Shown piece after piece: positions 1-10,103 of a stretch of 10,103 nt of DNA. The notes under the pieces were generated by a model. It saw only the letters and a program-made list of their open reading frames with translations. It was not told where the DNA came from and ran no database searches. The position numbers were made by a program, and so were the translations under genes. Position 1 is the first letter of the stretch, and every line of letters starts with the position of its first letter. Location: UHGV virus genome UHGV-0293072; one strand, written 5' to 3'. Source of the stretch: a virus.

Positions 1-146
1 ACGGCCAGCACGGTGGGGTATTGTATGCGCGGCGCAATATGGTGGCCGGTGGCTATATCAGCGGCGGCCTGACGCCTGACCAGGTCGAACAATCGGTCTT
101 TGATTATCTGCTGTTTGGTGACGTTGCTATCCTGAAAATTCCTTTG

Positions 147-1958
147 TCATGCTGCTTTCCCAAAGTACCAGCCCGATGGGCGGTCATATTCGTGATCGAT
201 AGGTTCGTTAATTACGGCGTGCGAAATGGCGAAGAAAACATCTGCATGGCCGGTCGCGTCTGAGCGTTCGGCAACAAATGTCAGCGCGTTGCCGCTGTTG
301 GTTGTCGTGCGCCGGATAGCCATAAAGCTGGCCGGAATTTCGACGCGCTCTTTGTTCGTTTCGTCTACGGCGTCTTTTGCCCATTCGATGCGCTTACGCT
401 CGACAACGTCGATCATCTTCATCACCAGGCGGTTTTTGCTTTCGACGCTGTAAAGAATGGGTGTGGCTTCGCGTGGCGCAAATTTGCTGACAAGGTCATA
501 AACGCCCTTACCTATGCCGGTTGTATCGATCCCGATGTAAGTGATGTTAAAGCGGCGCATAAGCTGCTTTATCTGGTCGGCCTGCCAGCTGAAGTTAAAG
601 CCCTGCCATTGCCAGACGGCCAGCACACGGAAGCGCTCGCCGTCCTCTATGGGGGGCGCGATTAACACAAAGGTGGAATTGTCGCCGGATCGTGACGGGT
701 CAAAGCCTGCCCATACTTCGCGATTGCCGAAGGGCCGCGCAGCGGTCAGATCAAAGTCGCCCCATGTGGCCCGGTCCACTTCACAGCCAACAAGCGCGGA
801 GAACTTGAAAACCGCGTCTTTACTGTCAACAAACTGGCACATGTAGAGCATGGCGAACGCGGTCGGGCTGTATTTGTTGCGCAGCCGTTCAATATCGACA
901 AGCGCCCCGAGGCCGCCTTCGATAGCGTCTTCCATCGTGATGATGTAGCGCCAGATCTGGTCCGGGCAAAGAATGCCCTGGCGCATTTCGCTTTCGTTCG
1001 GGAACTTCACACCTTTGCGTTTAGGGTCGTCCCCGCGCCAGGCTTCGCCAGTCCAGACCGGGTAAGCCTGGTGCGTTTTCGCGCTGGGCGTCGAAAAGTA
1101 GGTCGTGCGGTATTTGTTATGCGTTGCCATTGCGCTGGCAACTTCATGCAGGCGCGTGAATTTCGGGATCCAGAAAACCTCATCGCCATACAGGTGGCCG
1201 TTAAAGCCCTGTGCGGTACTGGCGTTCGTGGACAAAAAGCGCAGTATTGCGCCGTTACTGAGGCGGATATTTTTACCCGTCAGCGTCACGCCGAAATGGT
1301 TCTGGGCGATCTGGACGATGTATTCACGGAAGATTTCCGACTGGGAGCGGCTTGCAGAGAAAAAGACCTGGTTGTCACCGGTAATGACGGCGTCTTCAAA
1401 TGCTTCCCAGGCGAAATAATAGGTCATACCCACCTGGCGGCTTTTCAGAATGAAGCGCCAGTCTTCGCCTTTATGTTCGCGGCAGTGCAGCTGGTACTCG
1501 AAGAGATGTTCCCGCGCCCAGGTGTCGAGCATTTCCGCTGTAATACCGGAAACGTCGTTTTTCTTATACCGGCGCTTTCTTTCCCCAGGTTCCCCGCCTG
1601 CGCTGCTGAGGCAGTACCCTTCACCATCATAAGCCGCTTTCTGGGCCTGAATTTCTGCCAGCTTTTCGGCGTGCTTGTTGTGCTGCGCCATGAGCTTCAC
1701 ATGATGGGCAATCAGATCGCGTAGTTCCTCCAGTTCCAGCGCGGTTTTTTTCTCGCGGCGGGAGAGCTGGTCGATACGGCGGGCGATGACATTTTCCACC
1801 GATTCAACAGGCAGCAGTGATGCCCACTTCCCGACGTCAGCCCAGTGGTAAATTGTACGCGGTGGAATATTCAGTTCCTGCGCAATATCTTTCGGCGACC
1901 AGCTTTTTATATAAAGCGTGCGGGCCGCTTCTTTTAATTCATCGGAATATTTAGCCAT
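147..1958 (-). CDS. Phage terminase large (ATPase) subunit, P2 GpP-like
   Basis: 603-aa ORF, ATG at 1958-1956 and TGA at 149-147. Size, N-terminus (MAKYSDELKEAARTLYIKSW) and position divergent from a scaffold-capsid operon match the P2-family terminase ATPase arrangement. Family assignment is from recall, not a search. Confidence 0.85.
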   Translation of the reverse strand: MAKYSDELKEAARTLYIKSWSPKDIAQELNIPPRTIYHWADVGKWASLLPVESVENVIARRIDQLSRREKKTALELEELRDLIAHHVKLMAQHNKHAEKLAEIQAQKAAYDGEGYCLSSAGGEPGERKRRYKKNDVSGITAEMLDTWAREHLFEYQLHCREHKGEDWRFILKSRQVGMTYYFAWEAFEDAVITGDNQVFFSASRSQSEIFREYIVQIAQNHFGVTLTGKNIRLSNGAILRFLSTNASTAQGFNGHLYGDEVFWIPKFTRLHEVASAMATHNKYRTTYFSTPSAKTHQAYPVWTGEAWRGDDPKRKGVKFPNESEMRQGILCPDQIWRYIITMEDAIEGGLGALVDIERLRNKYSPTAFAMLYMCQFVDSKDAVFKFSALVGCEVDRATWGDFDLTAARPFGNREVWAGFDPSRSGDNSTFVLIAPPIEDGERFRVLAVWQWQGFNFSWQADQIKQLMRRFNITYIGIDTTGIGKGVYDLVSKFAPREATPILYSVESKNRLVMKMIDVVERKRIEWAKDAVDETNKERVEIPASFMAIRRTTTNSGNALTFVAERSDATGHADVFFAISHAVINEPIDHEYDRPSGWYFGKAA

Positions 1959-2135
1959 GCGGCTATTATGGCGGGATTATTTTGCAGAATTGATAATTAA
2001 ATATCGGTAAAAAGTGGCTATCCCATTATAACCGAATACATAAGAAATAAAGCGGTCGCGCTGTATTAATCAATTCGCAATACTGACCACCACAAACGAA
2101 TCATTGCTATTTTAATTCTTCAATAAAGGTCAGTT
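1959..2135. promoter_or_regulatory. Divergent AT-rich intergenic region, probable late promoters for the leftward terminase operon and the rightward scaffold-capsid operon
   Basis: 177-bp AT-rich gap between divergent starts at 1958 (-) and 2136 (+). Contains an imperfect dyad TGTATT-N11-AATACT at 2062-2084, i.e. TGT-N12-GCA rather than the canonical P2 Ogr-type TGT-N12-ACA. No confident -10/-35 identified. Confidence 0.4.
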
Positions 2136-3197
2136 ATGCCGCAATCTCATTACCGCACGGATTGGCTATGTATTGCCACATCTGGACAGGCTGTGGACGG
2201 TCGCACCATTGAACCGCAATGGTTGATTGATGCGGCAGAAACCTACACCCGCAAAACCTACACCGCCATGATTTGGCCGCACCACCCGCAATACGATATC
2301 GGCGAGCGTGAATTTACCTGCAACCTGGGTGAAGTGGACGCGCTGAAAGTGGAAACGGAAGGTGACGTCACGAAGTTATATGCCCAGTTAATCCCGAATC
2401 AATTTTTAATTGATGCCAACCGTATGGGGCAAAAGTTATTTACGTCAGCAGAATTTGTCACTGATTTTGCAGGCAGTGGTCGTGAATATCTTTTCGGGCT
2501 GGCTGTGACGGATATTCCGGCAAGTCTGGGAACGGAAAAACTTAAATTTGTTTTAGCCGGTGAAGAAAAAGACGCCGAGCGCGGGAGTCTGGAAACATTC
2601 AGCTTAGGGAAATTACAGACAAGTAAACCAGATAAAAAAGATTCTTTCTGGTCGCGTTTATTTTCGGCCAGTAAAGATTTTACGCCAACGCCAGAGCCAA
2701 ACACTGATAAGCCCACCGAGGGCGACGGAGAAAAAATGGAAGAATTAAAAGCGCTCATTCAGCAAATGCTGGATCTGCTTAAAAGCGGGAAAGACGCCGC
2801 AGCGGGTGACGCTGACACGGTTGATACCCCGGAACAGGCCGCAGATGTGGTGGCAGATGTTGCCGCCCAGATCGCTGATGCTGCCGACGAGGTGGCCGAG
2901 CTGGCGCAGGACGTTATCGAAAACCCGGAAGACGAAGTCAAAGCGGAAGAATTCAGCGCCGCCAAAGCCAACCTGGCAAAAGTCATGAAGTCATTCAATG
3001 TGACGCCAGCGAAGCGCCCACGCGCCAGCCGTCGCCGTGACTTTTCCGCCCGTCGCCAGCCCGCTGACAACCCAATGGACAACCTCGCCACGCAACTGAC
3101 TACCGCCCTGACCAAGTTGTCAGCGCTGGAAAACGGCAATACGCGCCGCCCTGGCAGCGCACCAGGTGGAAACAAAGAACCGTTTGAGTTTGTTTAA
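2136..3197 (+). CDS. Capsid scaffolding protein, P2 GpO-like
   Basis: 353-aa ORF with Shine-Dalgarno AAAGG 6 nt upstream of ATG 2136. It sits immediately upstream of the major capsid gene and has a long acidic Ala/Asp/Glu-rich C-terminal half typical of scaffolds. P2 gene order P | O N M L. Confidence 0.8.
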   Translation: MPQSHYRTDWLCIATSGQAVDGRTIEPQWLIDAAETYTRKTYTAMIWPHHPQYDIGEREFTCNLGEVDALKVETEGDVTKLYAQLIPNQFLIDANRMGQKLFTSAEFVTDFAGSGREYLFGLAVTDIPASLGTEKLKFVLAGEEKDAERGSLETFSLGKLQTSKPDKKDSFWSRLFSASKDFTPTPEPNTDKPTEGDGEKMEELKALIQQMLDLLKSGKDAAAGDADTVDTPEQAADVVADVAAQIADAADEVAELAQDVIENPEDEVKAEEFSAAKANLAKVMKSFNVTPAKRPRASRRRDFSARRQPADNPMDNLATQLTTALTKLSALENGNTRRPGSAPGGNKEPFEFV

Positions 3198-3225
3198 CAG
3201 CCATTCTTTTCAGGAATAAAAGATT

Positions 3226-4248
3226 ATGCAATTAACCCCAAAAGCAGAGCAGATGCTGCGTAAGTTTGCCGCAGGCCTGGCGAAAGCTAACGGCCAGGTG
3301 GACACGTCGCGCTACTTCTCGCTGACCAATCCGAAAGAAACCCAGCTGCGCAATGCCCTGTTGCAACAGTCTGAGTTCCTGCGCCTGCTGCCTAACGTAC
3401 TGGATGTGGACCAGATCACCGGCCAGGTGGTCAGCACCGGTAAACCGGGTATTTATACCGGGCGCAAAAAGGACGGTCGTTTCTCCCGCCCCCTGGGTGT
3501 TACCGGGAATGAATACAAGCTGGTAGAAACGGATTCCGGTTCGTATCTGCCTTACTCCCTGCTGGTTGTCTGGGCGAACGCGGGCAGTGAAGAGGAGTTC
3601 TTCCAGCGTATTCAGGCATTCAGCAACGAATCATTCGCGCTGGATATGCTGCGCGTGGCATTTAACGGTACAAGTGTTGCAGACGATACCGACCCGGAAA
3701 CCAACCCGAACGGCGAAGACGTCAACATCGGCTGGCACCAAATCGTTAAGGCCCGTTCGTCCGAACAGATTATTTCTGATGCCGTCACTATTGGCGCGTC
3801 GGGGGCTGACTTTATTGGTCTGGATGCGGCAGTCACTGACCTGGTGCACACCTGTATTTATGAGCCATTCCGCAATGACCCGCGCCTGGTTGTGCTGGCT
3901 TCCGCCGACCTTATCGGCAACGACGCCACCACGATGATGAATAAGATTGATCGCCCGACTGAGAAAGTCGCCGCGCAGCTTATTGGTCGCCAGATTGCTG
4001 GCCGTACCGTGTACACCCCGCCGTTTATGCCGGAGGGCCGCCTTATCGTCACCACGCTGGACAATCTGCATATCTACACCCAGCAGGGTACACGTAAGCG
4101 TAAAGCGGAATGGAACGACGACCGCAAGCGCTTCGAGAATAACTATCTGCGCATGGAAGGTTACGGCGTCGAGCATGACGAGCTGTATGCAGCATTCGAC
4201 AAAATCACCCTTGCGACCGGCGAAGTTGCACCGGGAGGGAGCGCATAA
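3226..4248 (+). CDS. Major capsid protein, P2 GpN family
   Basis: 340-aa ORF. Recalled P2 GpN-like blocks: VAFNGTS, NPNGEDVNIGWHQ, YEPFRNDPRLVVLASADLIG, and the C-terminal EHDELYAAFDKITLATGEV. Stop TAA at 4246-4248 lies 2 nt before the next ATG. Confidence 0.85.
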   Translation: MQLTPKAEQMLRKFAAGLAKANGQVDTSRYFSLTNPKETQLRNALLQQSEFLRLLPNVLDVDQITGQVVSTGKPGIYTGRKKDGRFSRPLGVTGNEYKLVETDSGSYLPYSLLVVWANAGSEEEFFQRIQAFSNESFALDMLRVAFNGTSVADDTDPETNPNGEDVNIGWHQIVKARSSEQIISDAVTIGASGADFIGLDAAVTDLVHTCIYEPFRNDPRLVVLASADLIGNDATTMMNKIDRPTEKVAAQLIGRQIAGRTVYTPPFMPEGRLIVTTLDNLHIYTQQGTRKRKAEWNDDRKRFENNYLRMEGYGVEHDELYAAFDKITLATGEVAPGGSA

Positions 4249-4250
4249 AA

Positions 4251-4952
4251 ATGGCCATGACCCCGTGTCAGCGACACCGAGCACGCGCGAAAGCCGCAAA
4301 GGCGCTGGATAAGTGCGAAGCACTGACGGCATCGCCGGTCAGCTTTCACATTCAAATGCTGGAGCTGGAAAAGGATGTTGAACGGCTTCGCAGTCTGACG
4401 CGTGCAGACCGTATGGACATGAAGCGCGACGTTCTTCTGCCGCGCTGGATGCCGACCGTTGAGGCATATCTTGCCGGTGATGCCCGCTTTGCCAATCCGG
4501 CCCTGGTTTACTGCGTGATCTGGCTGTTCGATACGGGGGAAATGGGCAAGGCGCTGGACTGGGCTGACGTGGCTATCAGTGAGAGCCAGGCCACGCCGGA
4601 GAACTTCAAAAGCAACCTGCCCGCCTTTGTGGCCGACACGGTGCTGGAGTGGGCGATCATGCAGGCGGAAGCCGGTCACAGCATCGAACCCTATTTCAGC
4701 CGCACGTTTGAAAACATCCGCGAAAAGTGGCGTTTGCACGAAGACATTAACGCGAAGTGGTTCAAATTCGCCGGTCTTTACCTGCTGCGCGACGAGAAGG
4801 GCCAGCCGCGTGCCACTGCCGTGGATGATGTGAATACGCTGGAACAGGCCGACGCCCTGCTGGCCCAGGCGGCGGCGTACAACAAAAACGCCGGAGTTAA
4901 GACCATGCGCGAAAAAATCCGCGCCCGGATTAACGGCCTGACCCAGCTTTAA
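4251..4952 (+). CDS. Terminase small (endonuclease) subunit, P2 GpM-like
   Basis: 233-aa ORF directly after the capsid gene, with a GGGAGGGA Shine-Dalgarno upstream. Position and size fit P2 GpM. Confidence 0.75.
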   Translation: MAMTPCQRHRARAKAAKALDKCEALTASPVSFHIQMLELEKDVERLRSLTRADRMDMKRDVLLPRWMPTVEAYLAGDARFANPALVYCVIWLFDTGEMGKALDWADVAISESQATPENFKSNLPAFVADTVLEWAIMQAEAGHSIEPYFSRTFENIREKWRLHEDINAKWFKFAGLYLLRDEKGQPRATAVDDVNTLEQADALLAQAAAYNKNAGVKTMREKIRARINGLTQL

Positions 4953-5054
4953 CGACTCCCGCAAGCCGGGACGGGCGCGGGGGAGGCATCAACCATACGG
5001 TTGTTGGCCGTGGAACCCGTCAGCCCGTTTCTATTGCAAAACCGAGGTACGCCA

Positions 5055-5528
5055 ATGAGTGGCCCTAGTTTCAGTATCAGCGGCAAGCCGGTGACGGTGA
5101 CGCCAACAGCGATCACCAACGGCGTGGCGTTCTGGCCCGATCTTGATCTGGCCGAGTTTCAGAAGGTGCGCACGTTGCCCGCTGACCTGCCGCCAGAAAC
5201 GGCAGGCGTGGCCCTGCTGGCCGCCATTGCGGAGGTAAACGACGCGCTGGCCGACGTGGTGACGTACTGGAACGCGAAAGCCTACGAACGGGCCGCAGAT
5301 GTACCGGGTGCAAAGATGGGCGACGAAACCCAATTAAAAGCCCAGTAAAAAAAAGCGGTCTACGCCCGCGCAAAGGCCGATTTACTGGGGGAATTCGCCA
5401 CCATCGGGCGACGTGAATCGCATCCGGGGCAGGAAAGCCAGGACACCCGCGCCAGCCTGCTGGCCGAGGCGGCCAATGTGATGCGAAACATGCTGCGACA
5501 ACCACGCGTTGGGGTGCATCTGATATGA
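5055..5528 (+). pseudogene. Head completion/stabilisation protein (P2 GpL-like) interrupted by an in-frame TAA at 5346-5348
   Basis: ATG 5055 with GAGG 7 nt upstream. The frame is open 5055-5345, hits TAA at 5346-5348, then the same frame stays open for 59 more sense codons (KKAVYARAKADLLGEFATIGRRESHPGQ...RVGVHLI) to TGA 5526-5528, which overlaps the ATG of the next gene. Combined length would be 157 aa, in the size range of GpL. Confidence 0.65.
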
Positions 5529-6001
5529 GCCAGCTTGAAAGCCTGACGGCGTTTATTACGGAAAATCTGCCGCCTGATGCCATGCAGATGTTTTCCAGTT
5601 CAATGGAGGATTGCGAGCTGGTACGCAACGCCAAAGCGCTGGGAAACAACCAGCGCCGGATCGGGGTGCTGACTTATACCGCCCGTTTGTCGTGGGATGA
5701 TTTCCCCTACCGCAAATATTCGCCGGGGCTGATTTATGCCCTGGTGCTGGCCTGGGTAGATGAGTTCGCCAACGAGCTGCGCGACGAGCTGAAGTTAGCC
5801 GATCCCACCGTGGACCCGGAGTTCGACGACGAAGGGTCATGCATTCTGGATGTGGTTGTCCCGCTGGTTGATCCGCTGGTCCTGCGTGAAGTGGAAAAAG
5901 GGCCGATCCCCTTCAAGGGTAAGAAATGGGACATCGTAAACCCCGAAATCTGGGAGGCGTCGCAACTGGAATTTATTGTCCAGCGTGGTGAGGCATCGTG
6001 A
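5525..6001 (+). CDS. Hypothetical phage structural protein in the neck/tail-completion position (possibly Mu gp36/DUF1320-like)
   Basis: 158-aa ORF. Its ATG 5525 overlaps the upstream TGA (ATGA) and its TGA 5999-6001 overlaps the downstream GTG start, indicating translational coupling. The family suggestion is a weak recollection only. Confidence 0.6.
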   Translation: MSQLESLTAFITENLPPDAMQMFSSSMEDCELVRNAKALGNNQRRIGVLTYTARLSWDDFPYRKYSPGLIYALVLAWVDEFANELRDELKLADPTVDPEFDDEGSCILDVVVPLVDPLVLREVEKGPIPFKGKKWDIVNPEIWEASQLEFIVQRGEAS

Positions 6002-6693
6002 TCCGTGGGGAGCTGAACCAACAACAGCTAAAGCAAATGCGGGAAACGCTGGCAAAAGCTGACCTTCCCCCGCGTAAGCGCCAGCGCCTTTTATGGCGTA
6101 TTGCAAAGCTGGGCATTGTCACAGCGGCAAAACGTCACCAGCGCCAGCAGGCGGCCCCGGACGGTACGCCGTGGGAGCCGCGCAAGCGTGGCAAAGGGAA
6201 AATGTTAAAAGGGCTGCCCAAACTGCTGGCTGTGCGTGAAATGCCGGAGATTCAGGGGGTAAGAATTTACCTCAAGGGCGGGAACTACCTGAACGGGACG
6301 AAGCCCATTGCGGCGGGTCTGGTCGGTGCGGTCCAGCAGGACGGTGCGCGGATCCAGATGAAAGCCAGTAACGCCCCGCGTAAGCCGCAGATTAACCAGC
6401 CCGCGTTACCGCGACAGGCCAAACGGCTGCGGGCGCTGGGCTACAAAACCCGCAAGGGTAAACGATGGGTTAAGCCGTCCAGCAGGCAAATCATGGAAAC
6501 CATGAGCATGGCCCAGGCGGGATTACTGATTCGAAAACTGAAAGGCACACCCTCAAAACGCACATGGACCATTGATATTCCTGGACGCGTTTTTCTGGGG
6601 GTGAGCAATGACGAATTTAACCAAATTATTGCGCGGCAAATGCAGGCAATCGGCTTCGGCTGGGACGTCACCGCGCAGCAAATCAGGGGGTAA
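5998..6693 (+). CDS. Phage virion morphogenesis / tail completion protein (P2 GpS, Mu gpK family)
   Basis: 231-aa basic protein with GTG start preceded by GGTGAGG. Motifs GTPWEPRKRGKG, RKGKRWVKP and IDIPGRVFLGV resemble the recalled W..P..R..G / GKRW / IPARPFL signature of the virion morphogenesis family. Confidence 0.65.
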   Translation: MIRGELNQQQLKQMRETLAKADLPPRKRQRLLWRIAKLGIVTAAKRHQRQQAAPDGTPWEPRKRGKGKMLKGLPKLLAVREMPEIQGVRIYLKGGNYLNGTKPIAAGLVGAVQQDGARIQMKASNAPRKPQINQPALPRQAKRLRALGYKTRKGKRWVKPSSRQIMETMSMAQAGLLIRKLKGTPSKRTWTIDIPGRVFLGVSNDEFNQIIARQMQAIGFGWDVTAQQIRG

Positions 6694-7146
6694 AAATGAC
6701 CTGGCCTACAGTCAACGTCAGTCAGAAAAACCGCTTCAACGGCACAACGAACGACGTCGAGCGCGTCATCCTCTTTGTGGGTTACGGCGACACTAACATC
6801 GGGAAAACCCAGTCGCTGAATACCGGCAGCGATCTGGATAAAGCCCTGGGCGACAAAGACAGCCCGTTAAAAAATATGGTGGCCGCTGCGGCCAATAACG
6901 CCGGACAGAACTGGTTTGCTTACGTGCATGTGCTGGCAGAGCCAGACAAGGGAGCCGAGGGCTACAAACCAGACGAAGACTGGATGAACGCAGTCAAACA
7001 GGCCCAGAGCGTGGCATCCGTGGAAGGGGTTGTCCTGGCATTTGATACCGCCGCCGCGGCCACCATTAACCGCGCAACGGAAATGCGCGTCACCTTACAG
7101 GCCAGTTTTGGGCGTTTTATCTGGTTTGCCCTTGCTGTGGGTGGGC

Positions 7147-7190
7147 CCGAAAAAGACGAAGTCATAATCGTGATACCACATCGGCACGCT
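7147..7190. repeat. Left junction repeats: A (7147-7161, ccgaaaaagacgaag) followed by B (7162-7190, tcataatcgtgataccacatcggcacgct)
   Basis: Exact reverse complements are present at 7454-7468 (A') and 7469-7497 (B'); verified base by base. Confidence 0.9.
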
Positions 7191-7468
7191 GTAGCGGCTT
7201 GCCTGCAAAGACTGCAACACAGCCAGATCAATTTCTGCGCCCGTCCCGTCCACCGGCAGGCCGTCGCGCCCCAGCGCGGTGACTGCACCGGTTGCGACGC
7301 GGGCGGGGCTGTCTGCCACCGTCACCGAACGGTTACACAGGCGACCAACCAGGACGCCGGGTTCGTTACCCCACAGGCGCGGGACCAGTTGCACCCCAGG
7401 CGAGGCAATACCGGCCTGGAGTTCAGCCAGGCGCGTCACATAGTCGCTCCATGCTTCGTCTTTTTCGG
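7162..7468 (-). other. Inverted internal block of the sheath-like gene (coding sense on minus strand)
   Basis: The minus strand reads SEKDE-AWSDYVTRLAELQAGIASPGVQLVPRLWGNEPGVLVGRLCNRSVTVADSPARVATGAVTALGRDGLPVDGTGAEIDLAVLQSLQASRY-SVPMWYHDYD, sharing EKDE with the plus-strand N-terminal fragment and SVPMWYHDYD with the plus-strand C-terminal fragment. Confidence 0.75.
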
Positions 7469-7497
7469 AGCGTGCCGATGTGGTATCACGATTATGA
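7454..7497. repeat. Right junction repeats: A' (7454-7468, cttcgtctttttcgg) followed by B' (7469-7497, agcgtgccgatgtggtatcacgattatga)
   Basis: Reverse complements of A and B at the left junction. The order on the right is A'-B', not B'-A' as a simple 44-bp inverted repeat would give. Confidence 0.9.
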
Positions 7498-7885
7498 CGG
7501 CATCTACTGGGCTGACGGTCGCACCCTGGACGTTGAAGGCGGTGATTATCAGGTGATTGAAAACGTGCGCGTGGTTGATAAAGCCTCCCGCCGCGTCCGT
7601 CTGCGTGCAATCCCTAAAATTGCCGATCGTTCGCTGAACAGTACACCGGGCAGCATTGCCGCGCATGAAACCTATTTCGGCAAGCCGCTGCGTGAAATGG
7701 CGATTTCAACCCAGATCAATGGTGTCGAATTTCCGGGCGAAGTGAAGCCACCAAAAGACGGCGATATCACCATCACCTGGACCAGTAGCGAAGCGGTACA
7801 GATTTACCTTGTGGTTCGACCGTATGAGAGCGCGAAAGAAATCGGCGTCAGCATCGAACTGGACACCTCACTGGAGAGCTAACCA

Positions 7886-8341
7886 ATGACTGAACGTATC
7901 AGCGGTGGATCATTCGATGTGAACTACGACGCCATCATGATTCACGTCGAAAACGCCACCGTCACCATTACGGACAACAGCGCGGTTGCGCAGTCGCGTG
8001 GCATCCCGAACGGCCACACGAAAGGGTCAGTTTCGGCGGATGTGGAAGTCGAAGTCGATTCCCAGAATTTTAAAAAGTTTACGGCTGTGGCCCGCGCCGC
8101 AGGCTCATGGCGGGCCATTCCGGCAAAGGACTTTTTGTTCTATGCCAATGCCGGGGACGACGAAGAAAAAATCGAAGTGTTTGGCTGTGTTCCGATGTTG
8201 TCCGACATCGTCAACATCAACCCTAACGAGGCCAGTAAAACCACGAAAAAAATTAAATTCATGGTGACAAGCCCGGATTTTGTCGCGATTGACGGCGTGC
8301 CGTACCTGTCTGCCCGTGACACTCGCGATCTGAAAGGCTGA
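7886..8341 (+). CDS. Tail tube-like protein
   Basis: 151-aa ORF with GGAGAG Shine-Dalgarno, immediately after the sheath-like gene. Size and position are typical of a contractile-tail tube protein. Assignment is by context. Confidence 0.6.
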   Translation: MTERISGGSFDVNYDAIMIHVENATVTITDNSAVAQSRGIPNGHTKGSVSADVEVEVDSQNFKKFTAVARAAGSWRAIPAKDFLFYANAGDDEEKIEVFGCVPMLSDIVNINPNEASKTTKKIKFMVTSPDFVAIDGVPYLSARDTRDLKG

Positions 8342-8657: not shown

Positions 8658-8982
8658 AAAACAGCAACTTTTCACGGTGATGATCGCCAACCTGATTCAT
8701 TTTGCCGAAGACAAGGGCTATCGCCTGACGTTTGGCGAAGCGTACCGCACACCAGAGCAGGCCGCGATCAACGCAAAAAAAGGGAGTGGCATTGCTAACA
8801 GCCTGCATACCCAGCGCCTGGCCGTGGACTTTAACCTGTTTGTTAACGGCGAATACCAGACCGACAGCGCCGCTTATCGCCCGCTGGGTGAATACTGGGA
8901 ATCCATCGGTGGATCATGGGGTGGCCGTTTCAGTAAGCCGGACGGCAACCATTTCAGTCTTGAGCATAACGGGGTGAGCTGA
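8644..8982 (+). CDS. Endolysin, peptidase M15 family (zinc-dependent cell-wall peptidase)
   Basis: 112 aa with an H-x6-D motif (SLHTQRLAVD) and a second His (GNHFSLEH), consistent with M15 zinc ligands. GGGGGAG Shine-Dalgarno upstream; start overlaps the holin 3' end. Confidence 0.75.
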   Translation: MKLSEKQQLFTVMIANLIHFAEDKGYRLTFGEAYRTPEQAAINAKKGSGIANSLHTQRLAVDFNLFVNGEYQTDSAAYRPLGEYWESIGGSWGGRFSKPDGNHFSLEHNGVS

Positions 8983-9365
8983 TGCGAAATGTGCTGGGTC
9001 TTTTGTTGATTCTGGCCGCTGCTATGTGGGCGGGCTGGCAGGCGCATGACTGGCACGACGCAAAGCTGAAACTCGCTGCCAGCGAAGCGGCAGAACAAAC
9101 GCGCCAGATTGTCGTTGAGGTGACGCGGCAGTCTGGTGAAGCGCTGGAAGCAAAACTCGCGGGGCTTAAAGCCAATGAAATTCATACGGAACGGGTTATC
9201 CGCACGGAAACCATTAAGCCGGTTTTTAGCAACGTTTGTGCTTCTGATGATTACGTCCGGCTGTTCAACGAAAGTGCAGATCAAGCCGAGCGAGAATTAT
9301 CAGGAAAACCAGATGACACTTTGCCCGGTAAGACCACCACGTCTGGCCGGACCGACAGGAAATGA
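8982..9365 (+). CDS. i-spanin (Rz-like)
   Basis: 127 aa with an N-terminal transmembrane anchor (LGLLLILAAAMWAGW) followed by a charged, helical periplasmic domain. ATG overlaps the endolysin stop (TGATG). Contains an embedded +1-frame lipoprotein ORF. Confidence 0.7.
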   Translation: MRNVLGLLLILAAAMWAGWQAHDWHDAKLKLAASEAAEQTRQIVVEVTRQSGEALEAKLAGLKANEIHTERVIRTETIKPVFSNVCASDDYVRLFNESADQAERELSGKPDDTLPGKTTTSGRTDRK

Positions 9366-9737: not shown

Positions 9738-10103
9738 CGGCGCGGGTAGCGGCCATTCGCACGAATGCCCTGGAGCAATACCTTGCCTTGAGCGCGTCCT
9801 CTGCTACGCCTTTGGAACCCACTTCTGCAAGTGCGGCGTTCATCTCATACGCCGGACCCACCACGCCCGCGATGGACTGCGCCACGCCCCAGACAGCCGC
9901 CGCACCGATCCCGATTTTTGTAAAAGACGCCTGCGATTTTTCAGCAAAGCCGGACAACGAAGATGCGATGAAAGGTGCAATGGCGGGCCTGTCCGATATG
10001 GACCTGCCCCGCGTCACCATCGCGGCCAATACCCTGGCGGCAGGCGTCAAGGCCAGCGGCGAAGAGGCAGGCGAATACATCGGTGCGATGGCGTCACGTT
10101 TCA
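9728..10103 (+). CDS. -1 frame extension of the chaperone (GT-like fusion) and/or 5' part of the next tail gene; truncated by the window end
   Basis: The -1 frame has no stop from 9719 to 10103 (over 125 codons). High-quality codon usage from about 9968 (MKGAMAGLSDMDLPRVTIAANTLAAGVKASGEEAGEYIGAMASRF). No good Shine-Dalgarno before the in-frame ATGs at 9872 or 9968, favouring access by frameshifting. Confidence 0.4.

Follow-up and report, generated by a model that had tools for sequence, protein, structure and literature searches.

Gene content of the window and its relatives

The window analyzed here, the whole 10,103-nt stretch of the virus genome UHGV-0293072, carries the module of a P2-like phage that encodes the head, tail, and lysis functions. 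The large terminase gene (147–1958, minus strand) is followed by genes for the gpO scaffold, the P2-type capsid, the small terminase, the gpL-like head-completion protein, and the gpR-like and gpS-like proteins. Next come a DUF2586 gene, an HP1 Orf24-like gene (7886–8341, matching Pfam PF10772, Phage_HP1_Orf24), a holin gene, an M15 endolysin gene, a spanin-like ORF, a tail assembly chaperone gene, and the start of a tape-measure gene. The nearest named relative is Salmonella phage SI7 (NC_049460, Irrigatiovirus, Peduoviridae), which shows 96% identity to the window, and E. coli prophages show approximately 94% identity. Because host DNA is absent from the window, its status as a prophage is unproven.

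The 127-aa ORF at 8982–9365, located 3′ of the endolysin gene, is annotated as "Rz-like spanin" in phage SI7 and as "hypothetical" in E. coli, and a Pfam search with this ORF gave no match. The longest repeat inside the window is 30 nt. Two distant pairs of perfect 17-nt inverted repeats (234–250/5579–5595 and 4049–4065/5975–5991) were also observed, and these may be due to chance.

The DUF2586 gene is likely to encode the tail sheath, as suggested by its match to PHROG 907 and its position before a tube-like gene. In a contractile-tail module the sheath gene lies directly upstream of the tail-tube gene, and the same order was found here: the DUF2586 gene is followed by the PF10772 gene, presumably the tail-tube gene, and then by the chaperone and tape-measure genes. 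SI7 has the same order, annotated as sheath and then tail protein, and its neighboring genes are those of the window (gpR-like, gpS-like, sheath, HP1 Orf24-like tube, holin, M15 endolysin, assembly chaperone, and tape measure). The AlphaFold model of an intact homologue (P0001) is of low confidence, with a mean pLDDT of 50.6 and values below 40 in the C-terminal third. The top five PDB entries returned by Foldseek for this low-confidence model (phage 812, PVC, Streptomyces CIS, phage Milano, and AFP) are all contractile sheaths or tails, with E values of 5.5e-5 to 5.9e-4 and TM scores of only 0.27–0.35. Sequence and profile searches of the PDB with the sheath protein found nothing relevant, and NCBIfam contained no model for the sheath family.

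The sheath gene is present in three pieces

The present sequence does not match DUF2586 (PF10758) or PHROG 907 as a single collinear whole-profile hit; the matches fall into three pieces on alternating strands. The 5′ part (6696–7161, plus strand) corresponds to nt 1–466 of the wild-type gene, that is, codons 1–155, and to DUF2586 profile positions 1–167. The ORF at 6696–7556 encodes 286 aa and is sheath-like up to ...GGPEKDE, which ends at 7161; it then continues as antisense junk to a stop at 7554–7556, and the longest present product consists of 155 sheath residues followed by 131 junk residues. The second piece is an inverted segment of 307 nt (7162–7468, minus strand), the reverse complement of wild-type sheath nt 452–758, with the middle proper at 7191–7453. 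A minus-strand ORF at 7095–7610 carries this coherent sheath middle and matches DUF2586 profile positions 162–269. The 3′ part (7469–7882, plus strand) corresponds to wild-type nt 730–1143 including the stop codon, matches DUF2586 positions 255–386, and has no start codon of its own.

The initial annotation, which was made from the sequence before any database search, had described a sheath-type gene split by an internal 307-nt reverse segment. It had further described a frame that is coherent to about 7161 and then turns to junk with a stop at 7556, a middle that is coherent on the minus strand only, a C-terminal part without its own start, and the loss of any full-length sheath product from the sequence as written. 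The translations and the DUF2586 and PHROG 907 matches agree with this description on each point. The identity of the reversed segment was evaluated against contig SRR11412904_3608, and window 7161–7468 matched at 308 of 308 positions in reverse orientation (L003 7457→7150; E = 1e-159 to 1e-175), which is far beyond chance. This comparison confirmed that window 7162–7468 is the reverse complement of the sheath-gene middle.

Joining 6696–7161, the reverse complement of 7191–7453, and 7469–7882, the three-piece join given in the initial annotation, yields 1143 nt with both junctions in frame and an uninterrupted ORF of 380 codons. That annotation had suggested searching the reconstructed protein against tail protein families, and the search showed a collinear match to Pfam DUF2586 over positions 1–386 of 386 (440.8 bits) and a match to PHROG 907 "tail sheath" (E = 8e-160). 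The reconstruction aligns without gaps to the SI7 sheath gene, with 96.0% nucleotide and 97.9% amino acid identity, and to the E. coli prophage copy, with 92.6% nucleotide identity. After reconstruction, the gene has the same length (1143 nt, 380 aa) as the SI7 sheath gp09 and as the DUF2586 proteins from prophages of E. coli, Salmonella, and Citrobacter. As present in the window, it differs from SI7 gp09 in that gene nt 452–758 are reverse-complemented and 44 nt are duplicated.

Interleaved repeats and the failure of flipping

The duplicated 44 nt consist of two short repeats at the borders of the inverted segment. The forward copy of repeat A (CCGAAAAAGACGAAG, 15 nt; 7147–7161, plus strand), at the left junction J1, forms a perfect inverted repeat with its 15-nt inverted duplicate at 7454–7468 (minus strand). 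The forward copy of repeat B (29 nt; 7469–7497, plus strand), which opens the sheath 3′ part, forms a perfect inverted repeat with its 29-nt inverted duplicate at 7162–7190 (minus strand). Repeats A and B are each single-copy in the wild-type relatives compared (L001, L002, and L003). With M as the middle and RC as the reverse complement, the wild-type layout is A + M + B and the layout in the window is A + RC(A+M+B) + B, a net gain of 44 nt. The three-piece join of the initial annotation uses this 44-nt inverted duplication without spelling it out.

The initial annotation also held that reversing the segment restores the ORF, and this was not borne out. Whether the flip was made at the 29-nt arms, at the 15-nt arms, or over the whole 307 nt, the result was 1187 nt and lacked an intact frame, a stop falling at codon 176 or 287. 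Because all simple flips leave 1187 nt, recovery of the sheath ORF requires that the 44-nt inverted duplication be removed as well. The related proposal that the segment could flip back is contradicted by the persistence of this duplication, by the lack of an invertase gene, and by the absence of the other orientation from relatives.

These results bear on a programmed invertible switch, in which phase variation, of the type known from the Gin, Cin, and Hin segments of Mu, P1, and Salmonella, would turn the sheath gene on and off. The perfect 15- and 29-nt inverted repeats at the segment borders are the feature that fits such a switch. The Mu G/Gin and P1 C/Cin segments switch tail-fibre genes and have an adjoining serine invertase, one pair of crossover sites, and two functional orientations. 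The window resembles them in having a tail-module segment bounded by inverted repeats, but it differs from them in lacking an invertase, in having interleaved duplicate repeats, and in having neither orientation functional. The repeat pairs are interleaved (A, B′ ... A′, B), and recombination at either pair leaves a 44-nt frameshifting insertion. Moreover, the inverted repeats are absent from the wild-type gene, both orientations of the present sequence fail to encode the full protein, and the other orientation was seen in no relative. An invertase was sought among the window genes, all of which serve the head, the tail, or lysis, and in 21.8 kb of the contig SRR11412904_3608, and none was found; the only recombinase in that 21.8 kb is a tyrosine integrase located approximately 16 kb from the sheath gene. 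Invertible segments are recognized by a single crossover-site pair, an adjacent recombinase, and both orientations among relatives or within populations, and none of these was found. As no flip of the segment yields a working gene, even when each repeat pair is tried in turn, the anatomy by itself excludes a switch driven by a recombinase, and we give this explanation virtually no credence.

Searches for further copies of the arrangement

No collection searched contained the arrangement, and a literature search for the accession SRR11412904 gave no hit. The exact 30-mer at junction J1 was absent from IMG/VR, the GTDB species representatives, and the JGI metagenomes, and the chimeric 286-aa product had no exact copy in the gene index. 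When 5.8 billion protein clusters were searched with the chimeric 286-aa ORF, the only hits were sheaths of normal length (380 aa) and a small number of unrelated truncations. Exact look-up of two other products of the window, the 129-aa antisense ORF of the tape-measure event and the 97-aa truncated head-completion product, both described below, returned nothing. The sheath gene was collinear in all relatives checked (18 E. coli genomes, 4 phage records, and 11 other loci), and the opposite orientation was found in none of these genomes, records, and loci or in 162 protein clusters.

Altered sheath genes of other kinds were observed in public contigs. Logan contig SRR30022464_135 (L015 4001–4882) carries sheath residues 1–183 fused in frame to a likely tape-measure C-terminus, and the tube gene, the lysis genes, the chaperone gene, and most of the tape-measure gene are deleted. 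The sheath protein P0005 is a 189-aa truncation encoded on a 27.8-kb contig.

An intact twin and further lesions in the window

A search using the neighboring proteins identified an intact twin of the window, the 30.4-kb contig SRR11412904_3608 (loci L003, L007, and L014). The twin is 99.96% identical to the window, with 4 substitutions over approximately 9.3 kb of collinear sequence, and its portal, head-completion, sheath (380 codons), and tape-measure genes are all intact. Window 139–7161 is collinear with L014 11820→4798, and the sheath gene is collinear with L003 up to window position 7161 and again from window position 7469.

Comparison with the twin revealed an inverted piece at each end of the window. 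The first 141 nt (1–141, plus strand) carry portal residues 74–119 on the wrong strand and are identical to L014 12026–12166 at 141 of 141 positions. At 141|142, a blunt junction connects this piece to the genuine start of the portal gene (ATG 150–148, minus strand), and approximately 205 nt of wild-type sequence is missing between the two. Near the right end, tape-measure residues 23–81 are inverted at 9788–9963 (minus strand), where 9787–9963 matches L003 10128→9952. Compared with the wild type, 205 nt have been lost before the inverted piece, among them the gene start and the stretch that follows the chaperone gene, and 73 nt have been lost after it. Wild-type sequence resumes in the terminal 141 nt (9963–10103, plus strand), which carry tape-measure residues ~107–152 and match L003 10202–10342. 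The 10-kb contig contains at least three local inversions (1–141, 7162–7468, and 9788–9963).

Smaller differences were also present. In the gpL-like head-completion gene (5055–5528), a TAC→TAA change creates a premature stop at 5346–5348 (plus strand; Tyr98*). The C→A changes at 5338 (Thr95Lys) and 5348 are separated by 10 nt and share a TAACA context, and in a comparison of 13 related loci only the window had them. They could be genuine decay, or else damage or errors that entered an assembly of low coverage. At 9769, 9772, 9796, and 9805, the window differs from the twin and carries the alleles of the E. coli prophage copy (L002). This patch near the chaperone/tape-measure boundary is ordinary polymorphism, a small natural mosaicism. 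A further base, G at 9790, lies 3 nt inside junction J3 and occurs only in the window.

Junctions and contig ends

The five junctions were compared with the twin, and the joined contexts have 1, 0, 1, 1, and 0 nt in common, which is as expected of random blunt joins. Because the junctions share only 0–1 nt, microhomology-primed template switching is disfavored. A misjoin at a shared k-mer in a small-k graph was likewise ruled out, since the wild-type breakpoints share only 0–1 nt.

The junctions also bear on chimeras formed by phi29 multiple displacement amplification (MDA) before sequencing, in which an early chimeric molecule would dominate the library. In 85% of MDA chimeras, nearby segments are joined in inverted orientation, mostly inside a single molecule and at distances of <10 kb (PMC1855051), and the order of magnitude fits the window, with several such joins in every 10 kb. 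The inverted chimeras described by Lasken and Stockwell (2007, PMC1855051) resemble those of the window in that opposite strands of the same molecule are joined a few hundred nt apart. However, MDA chimeras nearly always show priming complementarity of at least 2 bp, with 93.5% of the proximal inverted chimeras having ≥2 bp of junction complementarity (PMC1855051), whereas all five junctions of the window share 0–1 nt, roughly a 1e-6 outcome under those figures. In addition, chimeric molecules would need to be more abundant than the wild-type junctions at each border of the sheath segment, and we consider an origin in MDA quite improbable.

Both ends of the window lie at exact positions relative to the junctions. 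Window 1–141 and 9963–10103 each coincide exactly with the first 141-mer past a junction (J5 and J4, respectively) that is wild type throughout, and shifting either terminal 141-mer by one base brings in a non-wild-type base. The value 141 is the largest default k of MEGAHIT, and a unitig of a k=141 graph stops at a branching k-mer. A related ENA contig bears the name k141_90194. The window ends one k-mer past a junction on both sides and contains no internal repeat of ≥k, as a k=141 unitig does, and this suggests that it is one complete k=141 de Bruijn unitig of the MEGAHIT style. On this reading, with the ends at branching 141-mers, the wild-type continuation must exist in the same sample. 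The unbranched passage across the sheath junctions implies that the wild-type links at 7161/7162 and 7468/7469 were absent from, or pruned in, the graph of this sample.

All junctions have the same geometry, in which a run on one strand is followed by an opposite-strand run that begins 250–382 nt ahead and reads back. With 150-nt reads, the implied fragments are 443, 428, 532, 400, and 499 nt (range 400–532). The inverted runs measure 308 and 177 nt. A model in which the two mates of a fragment are joined into one read requires that no inverted run be shorter than a read, which is true of both runs at 150 nt. It also needs 141 ≤ read length ≤ 177, and the usual 150/151 falls inside this range.

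The possibility that structural variants were simulated or planted in silico on a real phage contig was considered with the same data. Blunt junctions with chance-level shared bases, a mixture of dup-INV-dup and del-INV-del events typical of variant simulators, and a contig matched in no collection searched would all be compatible with such editing. Nevertheless, it leaves unexplained why both ends lie exactly one 141-mer past a junction, and a plain planted inversion would have no duplications or deletions. We regard this origin as far-fetched.

A possible rearrangement in vivo

A real, non-programmed break and rejoining of the phage or prophage genome in vivo would make the element a dead remnant lacking both tail and portal. 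In the sheath gene, the route would be staggered breaks whose 15- and 29-nt overhangs were filled in and rejoined in the inverted orientation, or else two template switches; elsewhere, the tape-measure gene would have acquired an inversion with a deletion on each side, and the portal gene a further inversion. The layout A + RC(A+M+B) + B is exactly the product that the staggered-break model predicts (PMC5080602), a model in which, in Drosophila, inverted duplications are found only in the inverted arrangement and are absent from the standard one (PMC5080602). Among the complex structural-variant classes known in humans, the sheath event corresponds to "dupINVdup" and the tape-measure event to "delINVdel" (PMC5338099). 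The topology of the sheath gene in the window is identical to that of the Drosophila staggered-break and human dupINVdup cases, with an inverted middle and inverted copies of both breakpoints. The scale differs, being 307 nt with 15- and 29-nt duplications in the window versus kilobases to megabases in those cases. Also unlike them, the event in the window lies inside a phage gene, is clustered with two more events in 10 kb, and may not exist in DNA. The inversion with inverted breakpoint duplications places the sheath event in the staggered-break/dupINVdup class by shape only, which is silent on whether the event is real, and the names staggered-break, dupINVdup, and delINVdel describe the shape of an event, not its origin.

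Other features of the window are also compatible with a real rearrangement. The unitig passes the sheath junctions without a branch, the unique nonsense mutation in the head-completion gene fits decay, and public contigs hold other defective variants of the sheath gene (P0005 and P0006). Against these, the ratio of three complex events to only 4 SNPs in the comparison with the intact twin is extreme, the contig ends imply wild-type continuations in the same sample, and the arrangement was seen nowhere else in the collections searched. To our knowledge, enterobacterial hosts do not have the classical Ku/LigD end joining, and alternative end joining in enterobacteria usually uses microhomology; the junctions of the window share 0–1 nt. 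We take a real rearrangement to be the main rival of an artefact and consider it unlikely. We consider it decidedly unlikely that all three inversions exist in DNA and stem together from a single catastrophic failure of replication or repair, by clustered template switches or by homology-free staggered-break rejoining. If true, this would be a miniature "chromoanasynthesis" in a bacteriophage, with the portal, sheath, and tape-measure genes destroyed and the rest 99.96% identical to a live relative.

A probable artefact of read handling or assembly

A read-handling or assembly artefact, with joined mates among such causes, is the explanation toward which we lean, although with some reservation. 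At least three local inversions against 4 SNPs are far too many for ordinary divergence, and we infer that the junctions originated in read handling or assembly and not in DNA. The initial annotation had mentioned a wrong assembly as a fallback, which we consider most likely; its interpretation as a whole is partly supported.

Under the artefact explanation, the underlying gene would be nothing unusual: the DUF2586-type sheath gene for the contractile tail of a P2-like phage, a member of the Peduoviridae close to SI7. A non-reciprocal, blunt-ended join would have written the sheath middle backwards, and the same type of event would have occurred at least twice more, in the portal and tape-measure genes. 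The k=141 unitig would zig-zag along a normal phage genome because some of the input reads bore inverted junctions. The likeliest source of such reads would be the joining of read 1 and read 2 of one fragment head to tail, with read 2 not reverse-complemented, and an SRA dump made without splitting into mates would be an example of such input. An unsplit SRA dump writes the mates consecutively without reverse-complementing them; the response of MEGAHIT to such reads is argued from its algorithm, and a literature search on unsplit fastq-dump artefacts gave nothing usable.

At k=141, a 300-nt joined read would fully support its own false junction. The true link at the branch would need several 150-nt reads tiled within 9 nt, and it would be lost at low coverage. 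The expected outcome would be blunt junctions, local inversions with small duplications or deletions, and contig ends one k-mer into the true path. The phage itself would keep an intact sheath gene, like that of the 99.96% identical twin.

Some observations point away from an artefact. The contig crosses the sheath junctions unbranched, for which a real rearranged molecule that dominated the sample would be a simpler explanation. A decaying, defective phage would also fit the premature stop in the head-completion gene.

Implications

If the junctions are an artefact, the window would be a worked example of inverted chimeric joins that survive into a public-style contig, where they mimic pseudogenes or "invertible switches". 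The tell-tale signs would be several blunt local inversions per contig, a near-identical intact twin, and ends located exactly k bases past a junction. If the events are real, they would represent clustered, homology-independent inversion-duplication in an enterobacterial phage, a finding of moderate interest to the study of how prophages decay. Under the artefact and the real reading alike, the sheath gene of this P2-like phage would not be subject to a regulatory inversion.
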